Source: an uncultured archaeon (GTDB lineage Archaea; Aenigmatarchaeota; Aenigmatarchaeia; CG10238-14; SCSR01). From it: 64,000 nucleotides of DNA. How positions within the stretch are numbered: the first letter of the stretch is position 1; each line of letters begins with the position of its first letter. Below are positions 9,493 through 57,242 of this stretch, one piece after another. Location: assembly GCA_964373665.1 (NCBI GenBank), contig CAYJVM010000001.1, positions 9,546-73,545 on the forward strand. Reading direction: 5' to 3'. The position numbers and the translations under genes are program-made. Below the pieces are notes generated by a model. It had not been told where the DNA came from, searched no databases, and was given only the letters and a program-made list of their open reading frames with translations.

Positions 9493-9548
9493 GAAATCTG
9501 GCGGCAGTGGAACAATTTTGGAAGAAAAACTAACCTGAGATTGGCAAG

Positions 9549-15467: not shown

Positions 15468-15725
15468 ATGAAATATGGTGTTGTAGAAAGAGAGATAGAT
15501 CCTCAAGGTAGAGTTTTGCTGCCTAAGGGGTGGAGAGCTGAAATAAAAACTAAAAAAGTCATTTTGCTGCAGACGCCTGAGTATGTTAAAATTTTACCGA
15601 AGAAAAAAGTAGATCTAACCAAATATTCCAATTCGATAAAAGTTGATTTGAAAGCGCCTCTTACTGATTGGCATGCAGTTAAGGCAGAACTTCTAGCAAA
15701 AGCATACCTTCGTGATAAGAAATGA
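15468..15725 (+). CDS. vapB: VapB-type antitoxin (AbrB/SpoVT swapped-hairpin domain)
   Basis: EREIDPQGRVLLPKGWR motif. 4-nt ATGA overlap with the PIN gene. Confidence 0.7.
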   Translation: MKYGVVEREIDPQGRVLLPKGWRAEIKTKKVILLQTPEYVKILPKKKVDLTKYSNSIKVDLKAPLTDWHAVKAELLAKAYLRDKK

Positions 15726-16141
15726 TATTCTTAGATTCGAATGTTATAATTTACGACCAAATAAAAACAGAAAGAAAGTTAGACGAAAAGACACAGGAAA
15801 TTAAGAAAGCATCGCATCAAATTATGGAACGTATATCTAAGGGAGAAAAAGTAGTAACTACAGTTGTTCATATTTCAGAAACTGCAAATATCTTGGAAGA
15901 AATTGTTGGTATAGAAAACTCTTATAATTCCGTAGTAGATTTATTAAAATCTGAAAATATCCGTGTAGAGAATGTTGAAAAAAGTCTGTATACAGCTAGC
16001 CTAGATGAAGCTAAAGAATTTAAGATCGGTGTTAATGACGGGTTAGCTGTAGTCGTTATGAAAAATTCAGGAATCAATGAAATTTATAGCTTTGATGAGC
16101 ATTTTGACAGAATTGAGGGAATAAAAAGAATAACCAAGTGA
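15722..16141 (+). CDS. vapC: VapC PIN-domain toxin
   Basis: MIFLDSNVIIY...SFDEHFDRI (PIN acidic residues D5, E, D), 139 aa. Confidence 0.75.
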   Translation: MIFLDSNVIIYDQIKTERKLDEKTQEIKKASHQIMERISKGEKVVTTVVHISETANILEEIVGIENSYNSVVDLLKSENIRVENVEKSLYTASLDEAKEFKIGVNDGLAVVVMKNSGINEIYSFDEHFDRIEGIKRITK

Positions 16142-16234: not shown

Positions 16235-16471
16235 ATGCCAAAAGCCATGATACAAATATCAGATAAAGCTAACAGAGTGCTGAATATTTTGAAGGCAAAA
16301 TATGGTTTGAAGGATAAATCCCATGCTATCAATAAAATGGCTGAGGAATACAGTCAAACACTGCTAGAGCCTCAATTAAGGCCAGACTATATTAAAAAGT
16401 TAAGAAAAATCGAAGAAGAGGGCACGATTTCTGAAGAAGACTTTGAAAGAAGGCTCAAAGTGAAAGTATAA
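16235..16471 (+). CDS. relB: RelB/ParD-like antitoxin
   Basis: 78-aa ORF directly upstream of the RelE-like gene with a 1-nt (TAATG) overlap. Confidence 0.6.
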   Translation: MPKAMIQISDKANRVLNILKAKYGLKDKSHAINKMAEEYSQTLLEPQLRPDYIKKLRKIEEEGTISEEDFERRLKVKV

Positions 16472-16737
16472 TGTTCTCCGCGGAATTTTCCAAGGAACTT
16501 ACCAGAAAATTGGAGAAATCGCAGGCGAGGAACAAAGTTATGTTTGACGCCATCATCAACAAGATTAGGGAAATTAAGGAGAACCCCGAACATTACAAAC
16601 CACTAAGATATGACATGAAAGGCTTTAGAAGAGCGCACATCATGAAATCATTCGTTCTTATTTTCAGAATTGATTACGCGAATAGTAAAATAATCTTTGA
16701 AGACTTTGGGCATCATGACGACATTTACCAGCGTTAA
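16471..16737 (+). CDS. relE: RelE/ParE-family toxin
   Basis: KIREIKENPEHYKPLRYDMKGFRRAHIMKSFVLIFRIDYANSKIIFEDFGHHDDIY matches the RelE pattern (..G.rR.R.G.YRiiY.id.....i..igHR...Y). Confidence 0.7.
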   Translation: MFSAEFSKELTRKLEKSQARNKVMFDAIINKIREIKENPEHYKPLRYDMKGFRRAHIMKSFVLIFRIDYANSKIIFEDFGHHDDIYQR

Positions 16738-28512: not shown

Positions 28513-29103
28513 TTAAACTTCGTGGATAACGACTTCCTTGGGCATACTCTTCATTATCCTCACCTTAATCCCGATTATCCCAGCCTTTATTATGGCCTGG
28601 GTGTAGCCCTTGTCAACCAACCTTTCAGCATACTCGCCGGAATGCGCGACGAAACCTTTTTTGAACTTTTGCTGACGAGAGCGCTCCACGCCACCAATCT
28701 TACCAGCGATTTCTAAATGCACGCCAACTGCCCCAGCTTCCATGACCCTTTCCAAATAATAATTAGCCACTTTCTTGTAATGAGTCCCCTTTTCTATCGA
28801 GCCAGCAATTCTCCTTGAAACTATATTGGCGTCAAGCAGAGGGTTCTCCACTTCCCTGACGTCAAGCAGAGGGTTCTCCAAGTTGAACTTGTTCTTTACA
28901 TCCTCTGTAATTTCATTTATTCTCCTGCCGCTCCGTCCTATGACCAGGCCCGGTTTGTTTACATGCACAATTATCCTGGTTCCCAGAGGCGTCCTCTGGA
29001 TTTCTGTATGGCTGTAGCCTGCCCGTTCGAACCTCTTTTTCAGAAACTCCTCGACTTCGGACTCTTTTATTCCTTCCTTCACGAATAATTTCTCAATCGC
29101 CAT
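28513..29103 (-). CDS. rps3: Ribosomal protein S3 (uS3); contains an in-frame 30-bp tandem duplication
   Basis: KH domain (GLVIGRSGRRI). The repeat NPLLDVREVENPLLDANIV is encoded by tandem copies of cgtcaagcagagggttctcca at 28831-28883. Confidence 0.8.
   Translation of the reverse strand: MAIEKLFVKEGIKESEVEEFLKKRFERAGYSHTEIQRTPLGTRIIVHVNKPGLVIGRSGRRINEITEDVKNKFNLENPLLDVREVENPLLDANIVSRRIAGSIEKGTHYKKVANYYLERVMEAGAVGVHLEIAGKIGGVERSRQQKFKKGFVAHSGEYAERLVDKGYTQAIIKAGIIGIKVRIMKSMPKEVVIHEV
28831..28883. repeat. 30-bp-period tandem duplication inside rps3
   Basis: gcgtcaagcagagggttctccacttccctgacgtcaagcagagggttctccaa; 23/23 identical cores 30 nt apart. Confidence 0.7.
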
Positions 29104-29422
29104 TCTTCACCTTTATCATTTCTCGTTTATTAGGATTTTTATCCGCAATCGAGTCTTCAAGCCACTCTAGAAAGCCCCTATAAATTTCAGACTTGCTGTA
29201 AACTTTAGGCCGGAACCTGATCGCAAGGACATCGCTAATGCTACGGTTTGTATAAACATGCAAAGGCACAGTGCCGGATCTGATCGGGGTTTTCCCGGCA
29301 AATCTGCCAACTGGCGCATTGACCGTGAGGACGGAGTATCCGTTTGAAGTCTCGGTTCTTGAATAGTCCCCTCCATTAAACGTTACAGCCTCCAGCAAGC
29401 TATTCAATATTGAAGCATCCAT
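29093..29422 (-). CDS. Uncharacterised protein embedded between rpl22 and rps3
   Basis: 109-aa ORF filling an otherwise ~400-nt gap inside the operon; overlaps the rps3 start by 11 nt. Confidence 0.4.
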   Translation of the reverse strand: MDASILNSLLEAVTFNGGDYSRTETSNGYSVLTVNAPVGRFAGKTPIRSGTVPLHVYTNRSISDVLAIRFRPKVYSKSEIYRGFLEWLEDSIADKNPNKREMIKVKNGD

Positions 29423-32156: not shown

Positions 32157-32160
32157 AACA

Positions 32161-32412
32161 TCACGCCTCGGGCATCACCAAATCTGACAATCCATACAAC
32201 ATTGTTACAAAATAGCGATAGTCACCTTTATTATCAAACATGGTATAAATATCTTGATATGGTCCACGAGGCGCCGTACTAGGCAACAGCATACCCACCC
32301 ATCTTTTATCTAGTTGACAGATTCTTGTCATTCCATCGTCTTCTAGAGTTAACACATATTTCTCTGGCGTTCGCATCAGGTGCACTGTACGATTAAATAC
32401 CATAAAAATCAC
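32161..32412 (-). CDS. Uncharacterised 83-aa protein embedded between rpl3 and rpl4
   Basis: ATGA start/stop overlap with rpl3 and a 4-nt gap to rpl4. Confidence 0.4.
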   Translation of the reverse strand: MIFMVFNRTVHLMRTPEKYVLTLEDDGMTRICQLDKRWVGMLLPSTAPRGPYQDIYTMFDNKGDYRYFVTMLYGLSDLVMPEA

Positions 32413-33392
32413 TTGACGATCTCCCTGACTTCCGGCAAGAAAAATTTCAACTTGCTCGGTCTTATGGCAGGCCTCAGCATTATCAGTCTTTTTTCCGTGC
32501 CCGGGACAGAGCCGTGAATAAGCATGTAATCGCCTTTAACAACGCCATAGTTGACAAAACCACTGCTTGGAGTCACGTCACCGTTACCGATCTTCAAGAC
32601 CCTCTTGTTTATTTCTGTCCGTCTTTGCATGCCCATCTGCCCAGCTTGCGCGACTGTATGCCTGACTTTACCCGGCCTCTCCTGACCAAGGCTGCCGACG
32701 TGTCTCAATTTCTTTTTGGCATGCCTGTTCTGGATCTTTACACCGAACCTCTTTACAGGTCCTTGAGTTCCCTTTCCGGTTGTAATTGAAATAACGTCAA
32801 CAAGTTCGCCTTCCTTTACAAAGTCCTTGGCGGCAATATTCTTGTTCAGCAGACCTTTTGCATACTCTAGATTTTCCTTGACATCCTTCCCGCCGACTTC
32901 GAGCTCGAAAACTTCTGGCGTCTTCTTCCCAAAACCTGATAGCCTAGGCTGCGTGACAGCAATTAATCTGATTTTGGAAACTTTGGCGATATTTTTTTCA
33001 ATACCAGCAAGTTTTTCCTCGGTTTTAAAATTACCAACCTTGATTTTCCTTGATATGTCTTTTGGCAGGTCTTTGACAATGGCTTCTGAAATTACTTTTA
33101 GGCCGTTAACAGAATCCTGATAGGCTCTTATGCCGGCAACCTTCAGCGGCGGGCAGTCCAAAACTGTGATTGGGACGGAAACTTCCTGGCCGTATGTCAA
33201 GGAACCTTTCCGGTTGTCGAAGACTATGGCATGCAGCATCCCTGCCTTGTACGCAGCAAAGCCCATGATTTTTGCTTTATCGGATGCTGGGTATGATGTT
33301 ATATCTGGATATATTCTCTTCGCCCTTTTCCTAGGCCAAAATCCCTTAGAACCCTTTCTGGATTTCTTCACTTCTGGCATCCGATCACTCAA
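32409..33392 (-). CDS. rpl3: Ribosomal protein L3 (uL3)
   Basis: First gene of the cluster; ...FAAYKAGMLH..., 327 aa. Confidence 0.85.
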   Translation of the reverse strand: MSDRMPEVKKSRKGSKGFWPRKRAKRIYPDITSYPASDKAKIMGFAAYKAGMLHAIVFDNRKGSLTYGQEVSVPITVLDCPPLKVAGIRAYQDSVNGLKVISEAIVKDLPKDISRKIKVGNFKTEEKLAGIEKNIAKVSKIRLIAVTQPRLSGFGKKTPEVFELEVGGKDVKENLEYAKGLLNKNIAAKDFVKEGELVDVISITTGKGTQGPVKRFGVKIQNRHAKKKLRHVGSLGQERPGKVRHTVAQAGQMGMQRRTEINKRVLKIGNGDVTPSSGFVNYGVVKGDYMLIHGSVPGTEKRLIMLRPAIRPSKLKFFLPEVREIVK

Positions 33393-33494
33393 ACTTTATT
33401 GTTAAGATATGTTTAAAATACTTCGGTTGGCTTGCAATGCCGAACTTAATCGCGTAGCTCAAGCATATTAGACAGGATTAACATATAATTAAAT

Positions 33495-33911
33495 ATGTCT
33501 CAGTTGATAGAGGTCGGCGACAAGGATCTGGAGAAAGTAGACAATCTTGTAAAGCGGGGGGTGTTCCTTAGCAGGGAACACGTAGTAAAAGCCGGTTTGG
33601 AATCATTGTTGGAGCTACCAGAAGAAGAAATTGAGAAAATGAAATTGGCGCAGGTTAAAGTCAGCGGCTATTGCGACTCGCATCTCGGAAACATGCTGGG
33701 AGGCGGCGTTCCTGCACGGGTTCTCGTCAACGGCAAAGAATATTTCAAAGTACCTGTGAAGGGAGAATATAAGAGCGATATTTACACTTATGGTCATTTG
33801 TTCGTTGATGCCGATACATTCGCCATAGATGAGCGTTTGTCTGATTCTCCGAAGAAAATACACAGCACAGCATTAGAGTTAACCGGTGAAAATGAGAGTC
33901 CCTTGCTATAA
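33495..33911 (+). CDS. Ribbon-helix-helix (CopG/Arc-like) N-terminal domain protein with an unknown ~90-aa C-terminal domain
   Basis: QLIEVGDKDLEKVDNLVKRGVFLSREHVVKAGLESLL has the beta-strand and two-helix RHH pattern; compare the ..SRSE.iReAir..l consensus. Confidence 0.45.
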   Translation: MSQLIEVGDKDLEKVDNLVKRGVFLSREHVVKAGLESLLELPEEEIEKMKLAQVKVSGYCDSHLGNMLGGGVPARVLVNGKEYFKVPVKGEYKSDIYTYGHLFVDADTFAIDERLSDSPKKIHSTALELTGENESPLL

Positions 33912-34329
33912 ACAGGAACTTTGGTTTAGCTGTTTCGCCACCTGCGTTAGAATGATTTTAGAGCATTATGGTGTTGCCAAGTCTGAACGGGATTTGAGGA
34001 TCTTGCTGAAAACAACGCCCAGCTTCGGAACTATTTGGGATGAGGCACAGCGTGAGATAAAGCGGATTGGATTCGAGCTTGTTTGGAGGAAGCAATGGGG
34101 TATTGGTGAAATAAAGGAATTAGTTGACAGTTCTACGCCTGTGATAGTTGGACTGAAACGCGAAGGCGAGGTGCACGGACATGCTGTTGTTGCGGTTGAG
34201 CTTTCGGAAAATGTCTCAGTTGCTGATCCGCAAGTAGGAGGGATCGTCGTGTTGGAAGAAGATGAATTTATGAGATTGTGGAGTGGGAGGGAGAGGATAG
34301 CTGGTTTTCTAAGGAAGATTAAAGAATAG
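33886..34329 (+). CDS. Stand-alone C39-like papain-fold cysteine peptidase domain protein
   Basis: YKQELWFSCFATCVRMILEHYG carries the Gln and Cys of the C39 Q...C..aclamil.yyG motif. It is followed by STPVIVGL...VHGHAVVAVE (His) and VADPQVGG (Asp) ...EFMRLWSG. 26-nt overlap with the upstream gene. Confidence 0.55.
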   Translation: MKMRVPCYKQELWFSCFATCVRMILEHYGVAKSERDLRILLKTTPSFGTIWDEAQREIKRIGFELVWRKQWGIGEIKELVDSSTPVIVGLKREGEVHGHAVVAVELSENVSVADPQVGGIVVLEEDEFMRLWSGRERIAGFLRKIKE

Positions 34330-34396
34330 GAAAGTAACTACTAATATGTAGTTAAGAGTAGAAAAGCTTAAATATCAGCGTTTGCAATAAACGGGT

Positions 34397-34795
34397 ATGC
34401 CAAAGCTAACAAATATAGGATATGGAATATCCTTGGCACTTGCACTCGCCTTGTCAGGAGCACCTAGAAATGTCTATTGTCAATCAAACCGATCCACGGA
34501 AGGCACAGTGGTTGCGGTGGAAAGAGGAGGTTACGTAGGAATTCCTGCAAAGGAAAATAGGGTTGATACTTACGAAATAGGTAATCGTGTAACAAAGGAA
34601 GGTTGGCTAGGTAAAGGCTGGATAGAATACTTGCTCAAGGGACCTGATACAAATGAAAATCGAGGAACAGGTAACCATTACAGATTTTACAAAAGCGAAA
34701 TTGACTCTGAAGGATTGGAAACGATGGATCCGGATAGATTTGAAGTGGGGGACAGAGTAGTTTACAATGAAAGTTGCGGCTGGAAATTAAAATGA
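34397..34795 (+). CDS. Small secreted protein (signal peptide, two Cys)
   Basis: GYGISLALALALSGA hydrophobic N-terminus; 132 aa. Confidence 0.45.
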   Translation: MPKLTNIGYGISLALALALSGAPRNVYCQSNRSTEGTVVAVERGGYVGIPAKENRVDTYEIGNRVTKEGWLGKGWIEYLLKGPDTNENRGTGNHYRFYKSEIDSEGLETMDPDRFEVGDRVVYNESCGWKLK

Positions 34796-34801
34796 GAAAT
34801 T

Positions 34802-35245
34802 ATGCTTAAGAATGCATACAGAGCTATTGTGCAAGCCGTCGGAGGTGCTTCAAGATCAGAATCTTCGCCAAGGCTAGTGTCTGTTGGAAGCAAAAATTTA
34901 GGCGATTACGCTATCCCAGAAGATAGGGATATGTATATGGGCAGAGACTCCGAGAATGATATTGTTTTACCTTATGGCACACATTCACGAAGGCACGCAA
35001 GAATTATCTCGTTTGGATATGGACACGGTGTCCAAGATTTGGGTAGTATGTTCGGAACATATTTGAACGGACAAGATATAGGCGAATTAGGCGGATTTAA
35101 TAAACGTACCTTACCTGAAGACAAGTCACAATTTACCAACGACGATTGGAAAGAGTTTCACCGGGGGTACACTGGCCTTAAAAACGGAGATGTAATATCT
35201 TTTGGGAGTCCGAACAGTGCATACAAGCTGAGATATCGAGAATGA
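34802..35245 (+). CDS. FHA (forkhead-associated) domain protein
   Basis: MGRDSENDIVLPYGTHSRRHARI...GHGVQDLGSMFGTYLNGQDI...LKNGDVISFG matches the FHA GR..SR.H...DL.S.NGT..NG...GD.i.fG pattern. Confidence 0.6.
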   Translation: MLKNAYRAIVQAVGGASRSESSPRLVSVGSKNLGDYAIPEDRDMYMGRDSENDIVLPYGTHSRRHARIISFGYGHGVQDLGSMFGTYLNGQDIGELGGFNKRTLPEDKSQFTNDDWKEFHRGYTGLKNGDVISFGSPNSAYKLRYRE

Positions 35246-35277: not shown

Positions 35278-35679
35278 TTACAATAACCTTAATCCATCGA
35301 TTTTCTCAAAGTCTTTTTTATTGTTGGTGAAAAGCTTGAATGAGTTGGTCAGGCATATAGATCCGATAAACAAGTCCCTCAAAGCAATCATTTTGCTTTT
35401 CTTCTCCAAATCTGCAATAATTTTTGCGGCCATTTCCATCGAGTCTTCACTTGTGCTGACGAGAAAAACCGTGTTCAGCAACCCCTTTACAGCAGCCAGT
35501 TCTTTTTCTTGGTGTCGACTTTTGTACACACCTAAATAAAGCTCAAATGCATTTATGTCAGTTGTTCCTAGCTCATTTTCTTCTTTGAGCTCTCTTATTT
35601 TTTCCACAACTTTTGGATCATTCTTCAAAAAGTCTATCATCACATCCGAGTCTAAGATTATCTTTTCCATGATTTCCAC
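35278..35679 (-). CDS. vapC: VapC PIN-domain toxin
   Basis: ILDSDVMIDFL...TNNKKDFEKI PIN acidic residues; 133 aa. Confidence 0.65.
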   Translation of the reverse strand: MEIMEKIILDSDVMIDFLKNDPKVVEKIRELKEENELGTTDINAFELYLGVYKSRHQEKELAAVKGLLNTVFLVSTSEDSMEMAAKIIADLEKKSKMIALRDLFIGSICLTNSFKLFTNNKKDFEKIDGLRLL

Positions 35680-35951
35680 AAGTCCGAAATTCCCTTTTTC
35701 ATTTTTTCAGCTTCTTTATCGGTCATAGTCCATGTGCCAGCAAAAGACATGATATCCCCTCTTTTCTCAGTTTTCAAAAGTTCAGAAATGGCATCGTTCA
35801 TTGAAACAGGCCTCCTTTCTTTAACCCTGAGCATGCCCACGTACCTATTCAATCTGTTGTACAGTTCTTCCTTGACTTTAATTGATTTTTCCACTTTTTC
35901 CACCAAGTAGTATTGGTATACTTGATATTTATACTTTACCACACTAATCAT
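35658..35951 (-). CDS. vapB: Cognate antitoxin (RHH-like N-terminus, C-terminal toxin-binding tail)
   Basis: SIKVKEELYNRLNRYVG strand-helix; C-terminal MSFAGTWTMTDKEAEKM; 22-nt overlap with the PIN gene. Start codon uncertain. Confidence 0.5.
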   Translation of the reverse strand: MISVVKYKYQVYQYYLVEKVEKSIKVKEELYNRLNRYVGMLRVKERRPVSMNDAISELLKTEKRGDIMSFAGTWTMTDKEAEKMKKGISDLWKSWKR

Positions 35952-37523: not shown

Positions 37524-37608
37524 GCGCCGATAGTCTAGTCTGGTAGGACATCAAACTTTGTGTAAGCCTTCCAAGCTGAACGCATGGGTTCAAATCCCGT
37601 TCGGCGCA
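37524..37608 (+). tRNA. tRNA-Gly (anticodon TCC) with a ~12-nt non-canonical intron near positions 26-30
   Basis: Acceptor GCGCCGA/TCGGCGC. D-arm GTCT-AGTCTGGTA-GGAC. T-arm ATGGG-TTCAAAT-CCCGT. Anticodon arm TAAGC-CUUCCAA-GCTGA (the typical Gly-UCC loop). 12 extra nt (TCAAACTTTGTG) lie between the D-arm and anticodon stem. Confidence 0.6.
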
Positions 37609-37670
37609 CTAGAACTTTAAAGAAATAGAGAAAAATTAAAGAAAAACTCAAAAATTAGCGATGGATTGTC

Positions 37671-47747: not shown

Positions 47748-49315
47748 GTATGAACAATCTCATAAAGAGATTTCAAGAATAGCTTAAAGGTAACTACCCT
47801 TTTTGCAGCGTCCTTTATTCCAAGTTCTAACATTACAAGTAGGTTGATTAATGTCCATAAATTGTATAGTGCAACCGAAAACAGAAAATAGAATAATCTT
47901 ATTGAATAATTGTTAGATGTTGTCTTAACTAAACCTTCTCTTTTCTTAACACGGTATCCAGTTTCTATTCCCCATCTCTTACCATACATTCTAGGCAGGT
48001 TTTCAATCAAATCCACATCGTGACTGTTAATTGGAATGTTGGTTGCTATCTTCATCAGACCTTTAGTTCCTTCAACCAGAACAAGGTTCTTTATGATAGC
48101 GTTGCCTCTCTTATAGTTATGAATAACAAATGGTGGTGATACAGTTTCTATAACTTTCTTAACGCCTCTGTCATCAGGCAGTGGTACCACATAATTCAAT
48201 TTCATTGACTGCAACAGGTTGAATATTTTCTCGTTAGCGAATCCTCTATCCATGTAAATCTTGTTGATCTTGATTTTCTTCTGAGTATATTCTAACAACT
48301 CTTTAACTAAATCAGCTTCTCTATCGAAGATGAAAACAGGGAAAGCACATAACGTAAACCTAGTACCGTTTTCTACAATATCAAGAGTAATGTACTTGAA
48401 GTATCTGATAGTACCGTGATCATATTTGCTGTTGACGATGTTGGGATGGTTAGGATCTCCATAATAATGTTGGAAAGTATAGTCAACTGCAACATCAAAC
48501 TTTCTCTTATTAAATTTTCCAGACCTTTTAGCTATCCTAAACAACTCATCCGAAACTTTGGTAAATATGGCCTTGGTAGATTTAGGGTCGTGCTTCTTCA
48601 GATGATAAAGAATTGTGTTGGAAGCTGGTGAAATGGAGCCATTCTTCTTGTAGGACAATGCTCCACCATTCGTGAAACTACCTTCCAATGCCGAATGTAC
48701 TAGAACATCTAATATAGTGTTTTTAGTGTATTTTGCGTTATGCTTTATGTCAAGTTTTATCTTAGGATATATTATCTGTCTTAATCTTTTGGAGAGTTCG
48801 CTTAATTTCTGCTCCTTTTGATATTGTACATTGGTTTCTTTAACTGGCTCTATTTTTTCTTCTATTTTCGGAATTTCTGTGTCGAAACTCAGATCGAATT
48901 TCTCGGATATTTCCCTAATTTTTTTGACTATCAGTTCTATAATTTCCTTTTCTTCCTGAATGAGCTTGTGAACAAGAAAATAGGAAAAGCTCCTTTGGTC
49001 AGGTACCATTAATGTGTTGGTTTCGTCTTTGTCAAAACCTAGATTAAGTGCGTCGTTTTCGTTTGACTTTAGATAATCCGATAGATTTTTGGAGGATTTA
49101 ATTCCTTTCAATTGTTTGTAAATCAAGGCTCTTATCAACGATAATTTGGAGAATCTTATCATTTCTTCATCTGGTATTATGTGACCTATCTCCAGTTTAG
49201 ATAGAAATTCAGATAACTTGATAGAGCTAACATTCTTTAAACTAACAAAATTCTTATATACAGTCTTTTCAATTTTACTAATGGGGATTGTTGCTGTCAT
49301 AGGTAACATCTCCAC
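47744..49315 (-). CDS. DDE transposase, IS4-superfamily (IS1634/ISH3-like size)
   Basis: 523 aa; C-terminal KRWGIETGYRVKKRE (Y..RW.IE....K signature of IS4-type DDE transposases). Confidence 0.7.
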   Translation of the reverse strand: MEMLPMTATIPISKIEKTVYKNFVSLKNVSSIKLSEFLSKLEIGHIIPDEEMIRFSKLSLIRALIYKQLKGIKSSKNLSDYLKSNENDALNLGFDKDETNTLMVPDQRSFSYFLVHKLIQEEKEIIELIVKKIREISEKFDLSFDTEIPKIEEKIEPVKETNVQYQKEQKLSELSKRLRQIIYPKIKLDIKHNAKYTKNTILDVLVHSALEGSFTNGGALSYKKNGSISPASNTILYHLKKHDPKSTKAIFTKVSDELFRIAKRSGKFNKRKFDVAVDYTFQHYYGDPNHPNIVNSKYDHGTIRYFKYITLDIVENGTRFTLCAFPVFIFDREADLVKELLEYTQKKIKINKIYMDRGFANEKIFNLLQSMKLNYVVPLPDDRGVKKVIETVSPPFVIHNYKRGNAIIKNLVLVEGTKGLMKIATNIPINSHDVDLIENLPRMYGKRWGIETGYRVKKREGLVKTTSNNYSIRLFYFLFSVALYNLWTLINLLVMLELGIKDAAKRVVTFKLFLKSLYEIVHT

Positions 49316-49496
49316 CAGAGGAGTCAGTTCACAAGGCTAGCTCCTCTGGCTTACTTATCCAATGGGATAAGATTATTAGTCCTTATCCATAGTCTTATCC
49401 ATAGGTATAATATATATGTACTAGTATTTAAGCTTATCGGTATGGCTATCGGTAGAAAGTATTTAAATATAATAAACGAATTACTTTTAGATTAAT

Positions 49497-49700
49497 ATGG
49501 AAGACGAAATATCCAAGAAAATTGTCAGTACCATTAAATCTTCAGACGAACCAATCGAAACAAAAGAGATAGAACAAAAAATCAAAGGTGTGTCTAGAGA
49601 TAAGATATTGTACAGATTGTTTAATTTGAGAGGTGAAGGAGTAATTAAAGGAAAACAAGTAGGCTCAGGTAAAGGTACTTGGATATGGTGGAAAAAGTAA
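49497..49700 (+). CDS. Small winged-helix protein upstream of the R-M gene (candidate controller/regulator)
   Basis: IETKEIEQKIKGVSRDKILYRLFNLRGEGVIKGKQ. Confidence 0.45.
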   Translation: MEDEISKKIVSTIKSSDEPIETKEIEQKIKGVSRDKILYRLFNLRGEGVIKGKQVGSGKGTWIWWKK

Positions 49701-49718
49701 ACTGCATCAGGAGATAAT

Positions 49719-52700
49719 ATGGTAGAAAAACCAGACTTTGTAGATTCCGTCTTGAACTCTTTTAAGAATATATTAGGAGAGGTAGAGAAAGGCTCATCTG
49801 AACACGATATCAGATACAAGTTTGTCAAGTATTTTCTCGAGGATGTACTAGGTTACGAACCAAGACTGATCAAATGGGAAAAGAAGAGAGCTGACTTGAC
49901 CATCATAGACGATAACAATTTTTCTGTAATAATGATAGAAACGAAAAGACCCCAAGAGGACATAGAGAAAGCATCGATAGAAGAACAGGCTTTCAAGTAT
50001 GAGGAGGGAACTACAAAATACATAGGACTGACTAATTTTTCTCGGTTCAAATTATGGGAAACTAAGGATTCTAAAAGAGAACTGAAGGCGGACATAGACT
50101 TTTCGAGACTAATAGAAAGAAAAAGTGAACTATCGACTGAGGATAAAGGTAATATACTATTTCTGAATAATCTCACCAAAGATCAAATTTTTGATGCAAG
50201 AAAATACGAGAAATTCGACGAAACATATGCTAAAATCGATATAACGAAAGACGTTGGATTTAGAAAATTGTTGGAGAAGCTTAATTTCATTGCCAATAAT
50301 CTTTTGCTGGGATATACGCTGAAAGCATTTGGAGAATACAAAGAAGGTTATGGTAGATACCTGGAAGAATTGAAGCAAGTCGAGAAAGTGTCTAATAATT
50401 CGCATAAAGAAATTAATCATGGTGTGGCCAAGTTCAAGCAAAAGCTAGAGGAAAAATATGAAAAATACAGGACATTTTCTGGCTATTATTTATGGAAGGA
50501 GTATTCGGGAAAAGAGAACATTACAGATGATGAGATAAAGGAAGTTTTCTGCAAAGAAACAATTTACGTATTCCTTAACAAGTTGCTCTTCCTAAGAATA
50601 TGCGAAGATAAGGGATTGCTTGAGAAGAATATTTCAAACGGTGGAATCGAAGAGTTAAGAGCTGTCCTCAAAAAGAGATTTGAAAAAGATATCTTAAACA
50701 AAGAAATACTAAAGCTGGCTTTTGAGAGTGCGAAAGGTCTGTACTCCCATTTTTACGAGACGGGTATCTTGGATTGGTTTAGAACTGGAGATGGTGAACT
50801 AAACGAGTTGTTGAACAGAGTGCTGTGGATAATGAATTCGTTCAACTTTAGACATGTTGACAGGGATATACTAGGCAACCTTTATGAAAAATACCTTCCC
50901 AGTAACGAAAGAAAAAGATTGGGGGAATTTTACACACCAGTTGAGGTTATAGACTACATTTTAACGTCTGTTGGATATACTTACAGCTATGATATTGAAA
51001 CTAAAGATTTGTTAGATCCAGCGTGTGGTTCAGGCGGTTTCTTAGTTAGAGGTACAAGAAGATTAATTAGCAGGTATTTGATGAAATTTGGTAAATCTGA
51101 CAAGAAAGAATTGAGAGATCCTAAAAATTGGAAGGAGATTGTTAGTAGATTGTCACCTGACGAAGCAAAAATAATTCTTGAATCTATTAAAGAACATATT
51201 TATGGTCTTGATGTCAATCCTTTTGCCTGCCACATTGCTGAGATGAACCTTCTTTTTCAAGTAGTAGATTTGTATCAGAAAGCTAGAGAAAAATATAGAG
51301 ATTACAAGTTAGGAAGATTCAAAATATATAGAACAGATTCTTTGGAAAAACCTAGTCAAAAACAGATTTTTGATTACACCCATTCGACATTCTTGGAAGA
51401 GCAGGAAGAGATCGATAAGATTAAGAGCAAGAAGTTTGATTTTGTTACGGGTAACCCACCATATATCCGCGTACAAATGTTGGATGAGAGAGTGAAGAAG
51501 TATATTACCGAGAATTACAAAACGGCTTATAGCAACTTTGATTTATATGTTATTTTTATTGAGCGTGGTCTGAATTGGCTTAAGGATAATGGGAATTTTG
51601 GATACATTACGTCCAATCAATTCATAAATAGAGAATATGGTAAAAAATTAAGAAAATATATTTTGGAAAATTCCAAAATCATAAGCATAATAGATTTCGG
51701 TGATTCTGGAGTATTCAAGGATGCTACAAATTATCCAATGATACTGATTTTTAAAAGGGGCACACAAAAATCTAATAGGTTCAAATTTATAAAAGTAAAG
51801 CAATCGAAAGATAATTTAATTGGAGATATTTTTTCCAAGTTTAAGGAAAAAGAATATAATGGTCCTTATTTTGATATTTTTGAAATTGAACAGAATAAAC
51901 TTTCCGAAGAAACATGGCAACTATTTTCAGGTACAATAATTAAAATTCTAGAAAAGCTAGAAAAGAATATTAAACTGAAGGATCTGTGTAGAGAAAATGG
52001 TGTAGTAGTTGGTGTACAAACAGGATTAAATGATGTTTATGTTGTAAATAAAGACACTATTAACAAATACAAATTAGAAAGCAGTTTAATCAAAAAGTTG
52101 TTAGACAGTAGAGATGTAAGACGATGGAAAATAAATCATAGTGGACTGTATTTAATATACCCTTATTACGAAAGGGGTGGAAAAACAATCTTGATTGATG
52201 AAAAGACATTGAAGTCTGATTTTTCGAACGTTTATTCATATTTACTTGAAAATAAAAATAAACTTATAAAACGATGGGGTGTGAAAAACTGTTGGTATGA
52301 ATTGCCAACCGCAAGAACTCTAAATTTCTTTGAACAGAAAAAAATTTTAACTCCGACCATAAGTAATTTTAACAACTTTGCCTTAGATACAAATGGACTT
52401 TTCTTTGCGAAAGGAGCAGGAGGAAGCTATGGAATTATATTAAAAAATGATAGCAAAGATAACTATCTTTACATTTTGGGTCTGATAAATTCCAGATTGT
52501 TAGAATTCTACTTAAAGCAATTTCTTCCTGTAAAAGCCGGTGGATGGTATGAATATATAGCAGCATATCTGGAAAAACTCCCTATCAAACTTCCAGAAAC
52601 TGCAGAGGAAAAGAAAATTACCAATCAGATAATCAAGAAAGTAGACGAAATTTTAGAATTGCATAAATCTGGAATTGTGGATATAGACACTGCACTTGAA

Positions 52701-53096
52701 AATGTAGAAACAGAGAAACTATGCAATTTACCAAAAATAACATTCAATATAAAAGATGATGCTAAATTTGAGAAAGTTAAAACAGAAGGAAACAAAATTT
52801 ACATCAATTCTCAGGATTTCATAGAGGTCAAAGACAAGAAACTTAAGGACTTTGTTGAAATGTATCTCAACTTTAACAGTGAAAAGTTATCTAAAGATAT
52901 CAAAAGTATGCTTATCAACATTCCTATTCCAAAATCCGATGAAATTCTAAAAGATGTAATAGCTAAAGGCGGTATCGATTATTCACAGATTAAAGAAGAA
53001 ATTAGAAAACTAGAGCAGGAAATTAACGATTTGGTTTATCAAATTTATGGAATAACTAAAGAAGAACAACATGTTATAGATAATAGTATTAAATAA
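49719..53096 (+). CDS. Type IIG restriction-modification enzyme (fused PD-(D/E)xK endonuclease, gamma-class N6-adenine methyltransferase and target-recognition domain; Eco57I/MmeI-like)
   Basis: N-terminal D..E.K (ADLTIIDD..VIMIETKRP); MTase motif I LDPACGSGGFLV and motif IV FDFVTGNPPYIRV; 1125 aa. Confidence 0.8.
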   Translation: MVEKPDFVDSVLNSFKNILGEVEKGSSEHDIRYKFVKYFLEDVLGYEPRLIKWEKKRADLTIIDDNNFSVIMIETKRPQEDIEKASIEEQAFKYEEGTTKYIGLTNFSRFKLWETKDSKRELKADIDFSRLIERKSELSTEDKGNILFLNNLTKDQIFDARKYEKFDETYAKIDITKDVGFRKLLEKLNFIANNLLLGYTLKAFGEYKEGYGRYLEELKQVEKVSNNSHKEINHGVAKFKQKLEEKYEKYRTFSGYYLWKEYSGKENITDDEIKEVFCKETIYVFLNKLLFLRICEDKGLLEKNISNGGIEELRAVLKKRFEKDILNKEILKLAFESAKGLYSHFYETGILDWFRTGDGELNELLNRVLWIMNSFNFRHVDRDILGNLYEKYLPSNERKRLGEFYTPVEVIDYILTSVGYTYSYDIETKDLLDPACGSGGFLVRGTRRLISRYLMKFGKSDKKELRDPKNWKEIVSRLSPDEAKIILESIKEHIYGLDVNPFACHIAEMNLLFQVVDLYQKAREKYRDYKLGRFKIYRTDSLEKPSQKQIFDYTHSTFLEEQEEIDKIKSKKFDFVTGNPPYIRVQMLDERVKKYITENYKTAYSNFDLYVIFIERGLNWLKDNGNFGYITSNQFINREYGKKLRKYILENSKIISIIDFGDSGVFKDATNYPMILIFKRGTQKSNRFKFIKVKQSKDNLIGDIFSKFKEKEYNGPYFDIFEIEQNKLSEETWQLFSGTIIKILEKLEKNIKLKDLCRENGVVVGVQTGLNDVYVVNKDTINKYKLESSLIKKLLDSRDVRRWKINHSGLYLIYPYYERGGKTILIDEKTLKSDFSNVYSYLLENKNKLIKRWGVKNCWYELPTARTLNFFEQKKILTPTISNFNNFALDTNGLFFAKGAGGSYGIILKNDSKDNYLYILGLINSRLLEFYLKQFLPVKAGGWYEYIAAYLEKLPIKLPETAEEKKITNQIIKKVDEILELHKSGIVDIDTALENVETEKLCNLPKITFNIKDDAKFEKVKTEGNKIYINSQDFIEVKDKKLKDFVEMYLNFNSEKLSKDIKSMLINIPIPKSDEILKDVIAKGGIDYSQIKEEIRKLEQEINDLVYQIYGITKEEQHVIDNSIK

Positions 53097-53102
53097 TATA
53101 AC

Positions 53103-53594
53103 TTATTTTGGAATATACTTAATTACTTTTACCAAACCCTTCCATTGTTTCACGGGAATCTTAACAAACTTATTAGATGCAATATAAGATTCTATACTTT
53201 TAGAACTTAGAGACTTTGATACAGATGTGCCTTTTAAAATTAGTGTAAATGTACCTAAATCACCTAAACTTGTAAATCTACAAATTTTCTTATCATAGTA
53301 CTGTCCCGCATACATAGAACATACTTCGTTGCGTATTTCTGAGTCCAAATTAAGAGTTAATATTTCATGAATTACACCATTAGCTATTACATCTCCTTCA
53401 CCACTGACACAAACCTCATAGTTTTCCATAGTAAACTCAGGAGGACATACAATCAAATCATCAAGTTGTGCTAATGCATTTTCAACAGCCGGTAGTGTAG
53501 CATCTATAACTTGATCTGCAACCCACATTTGAAAGAGAAATACAATTAGAGCTGTTATACTAATGCCACCTATTATCGGTATACCCCCTTTCAT
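53103..53594 (-). CDS. Membrane-anchored/secreted protein with four Cys
   Basis: N-terminal TM GGIPIIGGISITALIVFLF; last gene of a minus-strand string. Confidence 0.4.
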   Translation of the reverse strand: MKGGIPIIGGISITALIVFLFQMWVADQVIDATLPAVENALAQLDDLIVCPPEFTMENYEVCVSGEGDVIANGVIHEILTLNLDSEIRNEVCSMYAGQYYDKKICRFTSLGDLGTFTLILKGTSVSKSLSSKSIESYIASNKFVKIPVKQWKGLVKVIKYIPK

Positions 53595-53905
53595 TAAATC
53601 ATCTTTAATAAACTAGTCTAATTCCAACTTCAGCCTCTTTTATAGCATTATTTTCAACGAGTTTGGATAATCCCCACATCAACAAAAAGAAACCACAAAT
53701 GCTTGCTAGAGTGTATGTTGAACTATCATTCCGATATTCTTGCTGATAATAGTTCACGAGTTCACCTCCTGTAGCTCTGCATATTTTCTATGCCTTTTAG
53801 AAAAAGGAAGATGCATCATATTGTACGCATAATTCCATTGCTTTTCCGTCATGGATTTGAAACCTTTATTACAAATATTACAAACTCTTTTTGATTTCAT
53901 AACAT

Positions 53906-54310
53906 TCAACCTCTAGGTGTCCAAATTTCATTTGCGGATATTCCAAGTTGACGAAGTCTTTCCTTAACTGACTCTCTGCTAGAACTAGTATTACACGTTT
54001 TTGGGACAACTATATGGAATTCACTTCCAGTAGTTCTTGATCTGTTGTAAAAGGCAGTCCATTGTCTTTCTGTATGTTGATCAAATATAGAACTACATGT
54101 TTCAGCTTCTAAAATAATAAGACTTCTATTAACACCATTTTTATAACAAGTTAAATCTGGTATATAACCATTAATGGAATCCGGCCTAGAGTAACCGTCC
54201 AAATCAGCTTTGATATCTGTACACCCAAGACTTTTAAAATGATTTGCCATCATTTCAATAAGTTGTATATGTTCTTTACTCTCTGCTGAGGTTCTAGTCA
54301 TAAAAATCAT
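53906..54310 (-). CDS. Hjc-like PD-(D/E)xK-fold protein, paralogue 2 (E-x-E-T variant)
   Basis: IQLIEMMANHFKSLGCTDIKADLDGY...PDLTCYKNGVNRSLIILEAET aligns to Hjc ERELv.lLek.GfaVvRsAGS...vDliA.ngk..l.IEvK; catalytic-position Lys replaced by Glu. Confidence 0.45.
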   Translation of the reverse strand: MIFMTRTSAESKEHIQLIEMMANHFKSLGCTDIKADLDGYSRPDSINGYIPDLTCYKNGVNRSLIILEAETCSSIFDQHTERQWTAFYNRSRTTGSEFHIVVPKTCNTSSSRESVKERLRQLGISANEIWTPRG

Positions 54311-54600
54311 CTCATACGTCTAACCCTAACCTCTGTATTTGGTCTATTTTTGGCATATTTCCTAAGGAGTCTCCTCTGATTAATATCTCTCCTGAAAGAA
54401 GTTGGGGTCTCAACTTCGACTATTCTAGTCTTCTTCCCTTTTTTTGCAATTATATCGGGTCTTACTGAATGACTGTGTACTCTAAGTGTTCTAGGTTTAT
54501 CGAATCCAGAAACATCTGCATGTACTCTCCAACCATAACTTTCTAACGCAGCAGCTCTTCTAATTACAGATTTATCGTGCTTCGAGATTTTACGGCTCAT
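54307..54600 (-). CDS. Hjc-like PD-(D/E)xK-fold protein, paralogue 1 (E-x-E-T variant)
   Basis: RRAAALESYGWRVHADVSGF...RPDIIAKKGKKTRIVEVET; same pattern as its neighbour; ATGA overlap. Confidence 0.45.
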   Translation of the reverse strand: MSRKISKHDKSVIRRAAALESYGWRVHADVSGFDKPRTLRVHSHSVRPDIIAKKGKKTRIVEVETPTSFRRDINQRRLLRKYAKNRPNTEVRVRRMR

Positions 54601-54723
54601 TTTCTTTCAATATTAATTATAAGCTAACACTTAAATACTTTGTTTTTGCATGTAGTTTGCGTATACTAGGTATAATATGGGGAAAGAACATACTGATATA
54701 AGGCTATAAAAGAAAATAATAAT

Positions 54724-55101
54724 ATGGTTGTACGATATGTATCTAAATTTATTACTGATGTGCAACCAGAAAAACTAAAATCAGAAAGTAAGATCTTTGA
54801 CATCTCAGATAAAATATTTCATCCCCTCAGAATGTTAATACTTTTTGATTTGGCTAAACACAAAGAAGCTTCTTTTCAGGAACTTAAAACTGCAACCCGT
54901 ACGACAGACGGTAATCTTGCAAGCCATCTAAGAGCTTTGGAGGAGAACGGTTTTGTTCGATATAAAAAGGAAATTAATGGAAAGCGTGTTATAACTTTTT
55001 ACCAACTAACAGAGTCTGGAAAAGACGAATTAAATAAACTAATCGAAGTGTTAACCCAACATCTCGAAAAACTTAAAGGTGATTCAGATGACAGATATTA
55101 A
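54724..55101 (+). CDS. Winged-helix (ArsR/TrmB-like) transcriptional regulator
   Basis: LRMLILFDLAKHKEASFQELKTATRTTDGNLASHLRALEENGFVRYKK..GKRVITFYQLTESG. Confidence 0.55.
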   Translation: MVVRYVSKFITDVQPEKLKSESKIFDISDKIFHPLRMLILFDLAKHKEASFQELKTATRTTDGNLASHLRALEENGFVRYKKEINGKRVITFYQLTESGKDELNKLIEVLTQHLEKLKGDSDDRY

Positions 55102-55552
55102 AAAAATATTAGCATGTTTAAACTATTTAGGAGTTTCATCTAATTTGAATTATTTTGCAAAGAGAATGCAAATACAAAAACTTATTTATTTAATACAAAT
55201 TTTTGGTGTAGATTTAGATTATAAATTTAATTGGTATCTTCACGGACCTTATAGTTCACCTTTGACTAAAATATTATTTGAGAATAAAAATATACCACGC
55301 GATTCGAGTAGTCTTACTCAAGGTGAAACTGAAAAATTAAGTAAGTTGAAAGAATTTCTAGGCGAAGATTTGCAATCGTCACATAATTTAGAAATCATAG
55401 TTTCCCTGCATTTTCTATTAATGGTAGGCAAATACCATCATAAAAGCGATAAAGAAATGATCGAACTTTTAAAAGAAAAGAAACCTTTCATTCCTCCAGA
55501 AAAAATAGAGAAATACTATGAAAAGATCAAGAAATTAATAGAAGAAAAATAA
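55079..55552 (+). CDS. Panacea-domain (DUF4065, SocA/PanA-like antitoxin domain) protein
   Basis: IQKLIYLIQIFGVDLDYKFNWYLHGPYSSPL matches the KLqKLLY...W..GPv signature; 23-nt overlap with the upstream wHTH gene. Confidence 0.5.
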   Translation: MIQMTDIKKILACLNYLGVSSNLNYFAKRMQIQKLIYLIQIFGVDLDYKFNWYLHGPYSSPLTKILFENKNIPRDSSSLTQGETEKLSKLKEFLGEDLQSSHNLEIIVSLHFLLMVGKYHHKSDKEMIELLKEKKPFIPPEKIEKYYEKIKKLIEEK

Positions 55553-55586
55553 ACAGTTGACTTTTACTAAAACATACCATTTTAAT

Positions 55587-55718
55587 CTGAAATAAAGTTG
55601 TCGTCTTTTATCCTTATATTTACGTTACTCCGTTTTTCTCTAGCTTTTAATCTTACACCAAACATTTCTGATAAATAGTTCAATTCCTGATACGATGTAG
55701 CCTTCTTTTTCATTAATG
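55587..55718 (-). pseudogene. Duplicated 3'-terminal fragment (~40 codons) of the double-HTH gene at 56598..57242
   Basis: The fragment translates as MKKKATSYQELNYLSEMFGVRLKAREKRSNVNIRIKDDNFISD. The intact C-terminus reads KKKTTSYQELNYLSQVFGIKLKAVEKRNTVNTTIKEISQVSKV. DNA identity is ~80% over ~130 bp. Confidence 0.6.
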
Positions 55719-55749
55719 ATATTTATTTGGATTTAATCAACTTCTATAA

Positions 55750-56403
55750 ATGATTGTAGGCATCGATAGTGCTAATAATTTGACATGCACAGGTATAATA
55801 TCTGGCAACGAATTGGAGATAACCGATTTTTACGAAGAACTTAGAACAATCTTTGCAAAAAGGAAAGTATATCCGCCATTCAAATGGGGCAATCTCACGG
55901 AAAATACTAGAAACTCATGTAAAAATGAGATAGAAGAATTGTTCAATAACCACGATTCCAAACTGAAATTCAACGTATTGTTCCATAAAAAGCCTCTTTC
56001 CATATCCAAAAAGGAAGTTTTGTTTGACATATTGCCAACATCCATTTCGGAAAATCTGGCAGAATGGATTAAAAACATTTCAGGATTTGTTATATTCGAA
56101 ATAGACAATGATTATAATATCAAAAACAAAAATACGCATGATTTCATTGAGAGCTTATTCAAGAGAATTATACCTACTCTTACGGACAAAATAATAACGA
56201 TCAGACGAGAACATGGTGTGCATAAGGTCACTATTAAGAAAAAAGTTGGTCCTAAAGACAGAAGCACAATTCATTTGGCAGGACGGGTTTCCAATGTCAA
56301 AGATTCGAGATCCATTCAGATAATAGACGTAATTCTAGGATATGTATTGAACAGAAAATGCAAATTTAGAAAAGATAAGCTGTATATTAGAACAATTTGT
56401 TGA
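55750..56403 (+). CDS. Hypothetical protein flanked by direct repeats (candidate toxin/effector; possible RNase-H-like fold)
   Basis: MIVGIDSANN.., ..IFEIDNDY.., ..IQIIDVILG resemble D/E/D of RuvC-like folds. This reading is speculative. Confidence 0.35.
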   Translation: MIVGIDSANNLTCTGIISGNELEITDFYEELRTIFAKRKVYPPFKWGNLTENTRNSCKNEIEELFNNHDSKLKFNVLFHKKPLSISKKEVLFDILPTSISENLAEWIKNISGFVIFEIDNDYNIKNKNTHDFIESLFKRIIPTLTDKIITIRREHGVHKVTIKKKVGPKDRSTIHLAGRVSNVKDSRSIQIIDVILGYVLNRKCKFRKDKLYIRTIC

Positions 56404-56597
56404 AAAAATTAAGATTGCTCCTCGCCTGTCGGCAAAGGAGTGAGTTTGTAGGCATTCCCAAGTCAACGCCCATAGGGGTCATAACTTGAGAACTGAAACT
56501 CTAATTATTAATACGGTACAGTAATATATAAAAGCACATCATTCGAAGCCTTTTAAGCTTTTCTGGTAAGCTACTTAAACATTCTAATTTGAGACAG

Positions 56598-57242
56598 TTA
56601 AACTTTTGAAACTTGGCTAATCTCTTTTATTGTGGTGTTAACAGTATTTCTCTTCTCTACAGCCTTTAATTTTATACCAAATACCTGTGATAAGTAATTC
56701 AGTTCTTGATAAGACGTAGTCTTCTTTTTCATCAACTTTAAAACTTCCTTCAACGCTTCTCCATTTTTATCTTGTAAAAAACAAACAGTCACACAAAACT
56801 TGCCCTTAAACAACCTAACCCTCCTGATGTTCAATTGGCTAGTCAAACTTCTTACAGCTCTAAGGTACGAATGTTTTTTCTTAGGCACTATAAAATACCC
56901 TTTATCAGTCAGTTCAGACAACACTTCCATGATAGGAGTACTACCAAACCTTCTGACAGAACCTCTGAGGTCATATGTCAGTAGATAGACAGTCTGTCTG
57001 TGAATCCCGAACATTTTAGCCAGTTCCAGAATATCAGTACCTTCATTAAAGAGTTTCCTTATCTCTTCCTTCTCTTCTGTGGTTAGTCTTCTAATCTGTC
57101 GTGGCAAGTCATCTGTATACCGTAAAACTTGCCATTTTTGGACACCTAGCTTTCTAGATATTTCCAATAGCTTGAAACCTCTTTTGTAGAGTTCTCTGAT
57201 CTGGTTAATGGTCTCGGCAGATAACTGTGATTTTCTAGGCAT
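56598..57242 (-). CDS. Double helix-turn-helix protein (transposase N-terminal-domain-like; no catalytic domain)
   Basis: Two resolvase/Tc1-type HTH repeats: INQIRELYKRGFKLLEISRKLGVQKWQVLRY and KEEIRKLFNEGTDILELAKMFGIHRQTVYLLTY. Confidence 0.45.
   Translation of the reverse strand: MPRKSQLSAETINQIRELYKRGFKLLEISRKLGVQKWQVLRYTDDLPRQIRRLTTEEKEEIRKLFNEGTDILELAKMFGIHRQTVYLLTYDLRGSVRRFGSTPIMEVLSELTDKGYFIVPKKKHSYLRAVRSLTSQLNIRRVRLFKGKFCVTVCFLQDKNGEALKEVLKLMKKKTTSYQELNYLSQVFGIKLKAVEKRNTVNTTIKEISQVSKV

Follow-up and report, generated by a model that had tools for sequence, protein, structure and literature searches.

Conserved pairing of a stand-alone C39 peptidase with an upstream, overlapping partner gene in archaea: a possible toxin-antitoxin-like cassette

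C39 peptidase domains are found on ABC exporters such as PCAT1, ComA and LahT, and the C39 fold also occurs in two cytoplasmic toxins, StbD-CT from contact-dependent inhibition (CDI) and Cpe1 from type VI secretion (T6SS), which cut GyrB and ParE and are neutralized by small co-encoded proteins (bioRxiv 10.64898/2026.05.07.723447; PMC12136450). StbD-CT cleaves at a Gly-Gly motif (bioRxiv 10.64898/2026.05.07.723447). In both cases the toxin forms the C-terminal domain of a large secreted effector, and the immunity gene (encoding StbI in the case of StbD-CT and Cpi1 in the case of Cpe1) is located downstream. A second point of comparison is provided by type II toxin-antitoxin (TA) modules with ribbon-helix-helix (RHH) antitoxins (ParD/ParE, CopG-type, VapB/VapC), in which two small genes overlap and the DNA-binding partner is encoded first. 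Described here is a pair of overlapping genes from an uncultured archaeon of the Aenigmatarchaeota (assembly GCA_964373665.1), namely open reading frame (ORF) 1 and the gene of a free-standing C39 peptidase. The pair lies within a stretch of 64,000 nucleotides (nt; positions 9,546 to 73,545 of contig CAYJVM010000001.1), which is referred to as the window and to which all coordinates refer unless another locus is named. The features of the locus are as follows.

33495-33911, plus strand: ORF1, the partner protein, 138 amino acids (aa), with an RHH-like N-domain and a conserved C-domain.
33892-34329, plus strand: C39 peptidase gene, 145 aa from the ATG at 33892 (147 aa from the GTG at 33886, i.e., 33886-34329).
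33892-33911, plus strand: overlap of ORF1 and the C39 peptidase gene, 20 nt, out of frame.
34330-34396, plus strand: intergenic gap between the C39 peptidase gene and ORF3, 67 nt, with a short palindrome and a TATA-like element.
34397-34795, plus strand: ORF3, an orphan of 132 aa with a hydrophobic N-terminus, outside the conserved cassette.
34802-35245, plus strand: FHA-domain gene, 147 aa, PF00498, a neighbor outside the conserved cassette.
35278-35951, minus strand: VapBC pair (PIN at 35278-35679, VapB at 35658-35951), convergent with the FHA-domain gene, listed as context.

An earlier sequence-only reading of this DNA had described a four-gene operon that is divergent from rpl3. Its gene structure was confirmed: four plus-strand ORFs occupy 33495-33911, 33886-34329, 34397-34795 and 34802-35245, the first two overlapping by 26 nt (counted from the GTG start of the C39 peptidase gene) and the later intervals measuring 67 nt (34330-34396) and 6 nt, and rpl3 (32409-33392, minus strand) is divergent from them, with the remainder of the ribosomal-protein operon also on the minus strand. 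Under a codon model trained on 20 confident genes of the window, the frame of each ORF was the only one of the six to score positive, the others being negative. Of the four domain assignments made in the earlier reading, three stand.

The conserved unit is very probably smaller than that, comprising the ORF1-C39 pair rather than four genes. Related loci (designated L001 to L024) were collected by exact-protein look-ups, a genome scan and a metagenome scan; 24 were fetched, about 20 of them from other archaeal metagenome-assembled genomes (MAGs) or metagenomes, and the four window proteins were searched by phmmer against the six-frame ORFs of all 24. In all archaeal loci that extend far enough (the window, L001/L006, L002, L005, L007, L009-L017 and L022-L024), ORF1 is present and is followed by the C39 peptidase gene. 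ORF3 and the FHA-domain gene were recovered only from the copies of the window contig (L003 and L004), so that the co-conservation expected of a four-gene unit fails; these two genes are lineage-specific neighbors. Within the pair, the end of ORF1 ('...ESPLL*') and the start of the peptidase ('MRVPCYK') are encoded by the same bases (33892-33911). With the starts as listed, five of the nine other archaeal pairs examined also overlap by 20 nt, as does the window pair when the peptidase is read from its ATG. Judged from this conserved overlap, the two genes are probably translationally coupled. Over 45 locus pairs, the identity values of the partner C-domain correlate with those of the C39 protein (r=0.80, not corrected for phylogeny).

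Regarding the peptidase, the assignment to family C39 is solid by profile, fold and catalytic residues, in agreement with the sequence-only reading. Peptidase_C39 (PF03412) matched with 37.9 bits (cut-off 22) and was present in 19/19 homologues, and the protein aligns along its length with the PCAT1 peptidase domain (phmmer), its Cys falling on the catalytic Cys, 'GHAVV' on 'AHFVV' and 'VADP' on 'VADP'. In an alignment of 20 homologues Q10, C16, H99 and D114 are invariant; the corresponding codons are at 33913-33915 (Gln), 33931-33933 (Cys), 34180-34182 (His) and 34225-34227 (Asp). An AlphaFold2 model built on this alignment reached a predicted local distance difference test (pLDDT) score of 90.4 and bore out the papain-like fold, yielding Foldseek matches to PCAT1, ComA and LahT (E-values 2e-8 to 3e-7, TM-scores 0.76-0.78). 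Further Foldseek matches were PeiR (a pseudomurein endoisopeptidase), Cpe1 (9l5u), StbD-CT (8ssm) and staphopain.

The homologues all start with 'M(K)VPxYKQE'. Because these N-termini and the 20-nt overlap of most homologous loci agree with it, the ATG at 33892, not the GTG at 33886, is almost certainly the start of the peptidase gene. The public gene call for this peptidase (P0001) starts at Met23 and yields 125 aa without the catalytic Cys. Internal-Met starts (125-137 aa) in the public calls P0001, L003, L022 and L023 drop the oxyanion Gln together with the catalytic Cys, and were apparently chosen to avoid the overlap with ORF1. Since public calls shorten the peptidase and lose its catalytic Cys, automated surveys will under-call this C39 family member.

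The window peptidase thus shares the Pfam family, the fold and the Gln/Cys/His/Asp set with the C39 domains of ABC exporters, but differs from them in being free-standing (145 aa) and predicted to be cytoplasmic, in having an upstream partner and in having neither an exporter nor double-glycine-leader peptides nearby. The canonical exporter context is absent: in the window, and at those related loci for which neighboring genes were read, the pair has no adjoining exporter. An ABC-type ATPase of a SUF operon is located near the pair in L024. The peptidase carries neither a signal peptide nor a wall-binding domain. The earlier suggestion that a free-standing archaeal C39 domain was undescribed does not hold for stand-alone C39-like proteins, which had already been noted in archaea (PMC4158269, PMC6393860, PMC13642728), but apparently does hold for the partner-C39 pair, as the literature searched yielded no account of either the partner family or the conserved pair.

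ORF1 comprises an N-domain (approximately residues 3-40) and a C-domain (approximately residues 43-130) and has no signal peptide. The RHH assignment of the N-domain proved weaker than the sequence-only reading had supposed: in window ORF1, RHH_8 scored 17.8 bits, under the cut-off of 25.4, whereas nine of twelve family members were matched with E<=0.01 (best 7e-6). A weak match to a ParD-antitoxin model (TIGR02606, E=0.064) was also obtained, and the helices of the N-domain fit the RHH pattern. The AlphaFold2 model of ORF1 (pLDDT 80 overall, 84-95 in the C-domain) shows helices at residues 9-20, 27-39 and 43-63, four antiparallel strands within 68-105 and a helix at 119-130. On this model the C-domain appears to adopt a cystatin/PepSY-like fold with membership in no known family; it matched no Pfam family, and a profile search of PDB sequences was empty. 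Such a predicted fold would suit a domain that binds or inhibits a hydrolase, although it is too generic to serve as proof. StbI likewise consists of a curved antiparallel sheet with helices, as in the model of the ORF1 C-domain; no homology between the partner and either StbI or Cpi1 was detected. Other known systems to which the pair comes close are the cystatin and PepSY domains of inhibitors or chaperones and the staphostatin-staphopain pair.

The partner family is tiny, with 16 cluster representatives at 50% identity in 1.84 billion proteins, and it is modular. Long-form partners (210-218 aa) carry a single RHH domain followed by two copies of the cystatin-like C-domain (L007, 5373-6026; L015, 4364-5020; P0035 and P0036), and short-form partners (95-105 aa) have no N-terminal domain. 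Following the last amphipathic helix of the partner, 'ELTG(G)' and an acidic tail are present (window 33855-33911; alignment columns 141-158). This segment resembles a double-glycine leader and might occupy the groove of the peptidase as a pseudo-substrate. The candidate role of ORF1 as a double-glycine substrate was considered and dropped, since Gly-Gly is not conserved in the partner: both the 'LG(G/A)G.P' loop ('LGGGVP') and the C-terminal 'TG(G)' are variable, and no Gly-Gly is strictly conserved.

Five distant relatives of the C39 protein were bacterial (L008 from a Gemmataceae MAG, and L018-L021 from soil metagenomes). All five have an upstream, overlapping partner gene of about 110 codons whose product lacks RHH. 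The bacterial partners form one family (a two-sequence profile gave E-values of 1e-28 to 1e-70) and end in '...RSPL' in three of the four readable cases, the fourth (L020) having 'RPAL'. They resemble the archaeal partners in position, in overlap and in the order of elements (helix, 'G..P', 'W.VPV', 'G.L.VD..TG', helix). As the bacterial partners lack RHH, the part of the partner that is constant across both domains of life is the non-DNA-binding domain, which is what would be expected of a peptidase-binding module. In L008 (5484-9088) the Gemmataceae pair adjoins gyrB and dnaN and is convergent with gyrB; this is a single locus, curious because known C39-type toxins cleave GyrB.

The cassette was found in at least eight insertion contexts. 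In the window it is located upstream of, and divergent from, rpl3; in L005, L010 and L022 it is co-oriented with rpS8 and lies 38-62 nt upstream of it; and in L002 (2843-4514) it lies between sodN and the maturation peptidase gene sodX, in the S5-L30 gap. In the clade closest to the window, three different cassette sites belong to the ribosomal-protein superoperon or adjoin it, one preceding rpl3, one preceding rpS8 and one being the S5-L30 gap; the relevant regions are 32409-33495 in the window, 950-2227 in L005, L010, 29-1351 in L022 and 2843-4514 in L002. This placement could reflect a hotspot for insertion or, alternatively, a functional tie to translation. No association with ribosomal genes is seen in the Aenigmatarchaeota and bacterial loci. 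In L007, L014 and L015 the cassette lies directly upstream of nurA, and the metagenome locus L015 has the same gene arrangement as L007, which is from Aenigmatarchaeota. Other sites are 33 nt after a tRNA gene (L016) and beside a helix-turn-helix (HTH)/SUF cluster (L024). Two of the contexts are presence/absence cases: window nurA is 63% identical to that of L015 and has purC, and no cassette, directly upstream, and sodN-sodX is uninterrupted in L022 (4362-5193), with no cassette between the two genes. In these two related archaeal contigs (L002 and L022), sodN (nickel superoxide dismutase) and the gene of its S26-type maturation peptidase are thus embedded in the ribosomal spc operon, with rpS5 on one side and rpL30 on the other.

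Genes of TA type are found near the cassette in several loci, namely VapBC (window), ParE-like (L001), MazEF (L009), PIN (L005 and L015) and MNT/HEPN (L023). L015 contains two cassettes in tandem, one with a short-form and one with a long-form partner. Three loci carry a decayed C39 gene, which is cut to 24 codons in L009 and frameshifted in copy 1 of L015 and, ahead of the catalytic Asp codon, in L023. Wherever a contig covers the whole of ORF1, that gene is intact.

Taken together with the known systems, these features suggest, at a confidence somewhat short of even, that ORF1 and the C39 gene constitute a mobile, self-regulated peptidase-partner cassette resembling a type II TA module. Like type II modules with RHH antitoxins, the pair is made up of two small genes that overlap, the one for the putatively DNA-binding partner preceding the other; the partner is modular, the location variable and TA genes lie nearby, and the putative toxin gene decays while the partner is kept. 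It differs from them in that the second domain of ORF1 is a predicted folded, cystatin-like domain and not a short disordered tail, and in that the searches made turned up no C39 peptidase among characterized type II toxins. In common with StbD-CT/StbI and Cpe1/Cpi1 it has a C39-fold peptidase, structurally matching both toxins, and a small co-encoded partner. It differs from these pairs in that the peptidase stands alone and the partner gene is upstream, overlaps it and encodes an RHH-like domain. According to the mechanism proposed, the C39 protein would act as a cytoplasmic Cys/His/Asp peptidase made in a fixed ratio with its partner; the cystatin/PepSY-like C-domain of ORF1 would bind and restrain it, and in archaea an N-terminal RHH dimer would in addition repress the promoter of the cassette. 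Were ORF1 lost or degraded, the released peptidase would cleave targets in the cell, plausibly behind small residues (e.g., Gly-Gly) in the manner of other C39 enzymes, and the cassette would be mobile, moving between sites.

Several observations weigh against this TA-like interpretation. The RHH_8 score of window ORF1 is below the Pfam cut-off and its model shows no N-terminal strand. The cystatin-like similarity of the C-domain is moderate and generic, and a Foldseek search with the ORF1 model gave no significant PDB match. By sequence, the bacterial and archaeal partner C-domains are only weakly similar (hhalign E=0.005, probability 7%). A search for inverted repeats upstream of ORF1 and a comparison by eye of the upstream regions of 11 loci revealed no common palindromic operator; these regions are A/T-rich and probably contain leaderless promoters only. 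No relatives were found in viral contigs, no relevant plasmid match was obtained (a single Bacillus ABC-exporter C39 domain being the only one), and PADLOC returned no matches. Assembly errors could account for the three decayed copies of the C39 gene, and a count of three against zero is not statistically strong. The repeated placement at ribosomal operons may point to a housekeeping role instead. Binding and inhibition within the pair, autoregulation, toxicity and the target are all predictions.

Among the alternatives, an ImmR/ImmA-like switch is unlikely but has to be considered; here the C39 peptidase would cleave ORF1 as a repressor on receipt of a signal and thereby de-repress target genes, and no toxin system would be involved. 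The gene order (repressor gene first, protease gene overlapping), the RHH-like domain of ORF1 and the double-glycine-site-like 'ELTGG' after the last helix of some partners are all as such a switch would have them. The bacterial partners and several of the short archaeal ones (95-105 aa), however, stay paired with the peptidase without any DNA-binding domain, which argues that DNA binding is not the conserved core, and the partner has no strictly conserved Gly-Gly.

Somewhat less probable is that ORF1 serves the C39 enzyme as a substrate (e.g., by removal of its acidic C-terminal tail), chaperone or activator, with no toxicity and perhaps with ties to ribosomal-protein operons. The repeated association of the cassette with such operons fits this housekeeping role in the clade closest to the window, but not in the Aenigmatarchaeota and bacterial loci, where it is absent, and decay of the C39 gene with retention of ORF1 would be unexpected if ORF1 only served the peptidase.

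The four-gene operon of the sequence-only reading, in which an RHH protein, the C39 peptidase, a secreted protein and an FHA reader cooperate in secreted-peptide maturation, signaling or toxin activation, is very improbable. Spacing on the same strand is tight in the window genome, and the C39 and FHA domains are real: the FHA call was borne out by PF00498 (51.5 bits, cut-off 20.7), and the translation shows the phosphothreonine-binding motifs GR ('MGRD'), SxxH ('SRRH') and NG ('LNGQ'). Against the operon stands the absence of ORF3 and the FHA gene from every related locus. ORF3 is an orphan that matched only itself in 5.8 billion proteins and has no Pfam or NCBIfam match; the signal peptide ascribed to it in the sequence-only reading is a hydrophobic N-terminus that was judged by eye. 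The GC content at third codon positions of ORF3 (0.32) and the FHA-domain gene (0.37) differs from that of ORF1 (0.49) and the C39 gene (0.45). The gap at 34330-34396 contains the palindrome AACTAC-taatat-GTAGTT (34336-34353) and a TATA-like TTAAATAT at 34368-34375, 26 nt before the ATG of ORF3, which is the archaeal TATA-box spacing for a leaderless transcript. Because this element precedes the ATG of ORF3, ORF3 and the FHA-domain gene may form a separate transcription unit with a promoter of their own. The idea of secreted-peptide maturation is without support, as no exporter, double-glycine-leader ORF or kinase motif was found in the 64 kb and the conserved pair has no signal peptides, one member having a putative DNA-binding domain; regarding double-glycine-leader ORFs and kinases, regex motif scans (not profile searches) of the 64-kb window yielded none that was convincing.

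That the C39-like protein is a cell-wall or lysis enzyme, i.e., a PeiR/PeiW-type endoisopeptidase or an endolysin, is most improbable, since the Foldseek match to PeiR (E=6e-8) and one weak PHROG endolysin match (E=6e-4) are opposed by the lack of a signal peptide and of a wall-binding domain, by the putative DNA-binding domain of the partner, by the absence of viral-contig relatives and by sequence profiles that favor PF03412.

Several further observations concern the surroundings of the cassette. The interval between rpl3 and tRNA-His holds accessory-looking genes only, namely the cassette, ORF3 with the FHA-domain gene, VapBC, HIT, an AAA_28 ATPase and two small ORFs. The VapBC pair was identified by profile matches to PIN (PF01850, E=1e-11) and VAPB_antitox (PF02697, E=1.5e-6). 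The tRNA-His gene (37524-37609) is 86 nt in length, about 12 nt above the usual length, which suggests an intron or insertion. Within the S10-type operon, a 109-aa ORF (29093-29422, minus strand) is situated as an unusual insert between rpl22 and rps3 and overlaps the start of rps3; it has no Pfam match, and the gene call is present in L003 too. The spacer between rpl4 and rpl3 (32157-32408) is 252 nt in length, although these genes normally adjoin; it holds an 83-aa ORF of doubtful value and has no Rfam match at the gathering threshold. The region 48000-57000 is a low-GC island (0.31-0.35, against approximately 0.43 elsewhere) with a 1125-aa ORF (49719-53096) and several small ORFs, and may be horizontally acquired or a defense island. 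Small overlapping or abutting gene pairs at 15468-16141 and 16235-16737 were labeled by eye as AbrB/VapB with PIN and as an antitoxin with a RelE/ParE-like protein, respectively; if these labels are right, the window carries several TA-like pairs.

A wider proposal, possible but rather doubtful, is that the cassette represents an undescribed TA-like family of Archaea and Bacteria, with a C39 peptidase as toxin and a cystatin/PepSY-like antitoxin that is fused to RHH in archaea. The short out-of-frame gene overlap would then predate the divergence of the archaeal and bacterial versions, and the landing at ribosomal operons in one archaeal clade would hint at a target in translation or at a preferred insertion site. 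C39 enzymes serve as tools for leader-peptide removal, and the partner, if the pair proves to be a peptidase toxin and its fold-specific inhibitor, would be a new family of inhibitors for C39 enzymes. On that condition the pair would also add a proteolytic toxin class to the type II-like modules and connect the C39 effectors lately discovered in warfare between bacteria with a self-regulated, intracellular counterpart in small-genome archaea.

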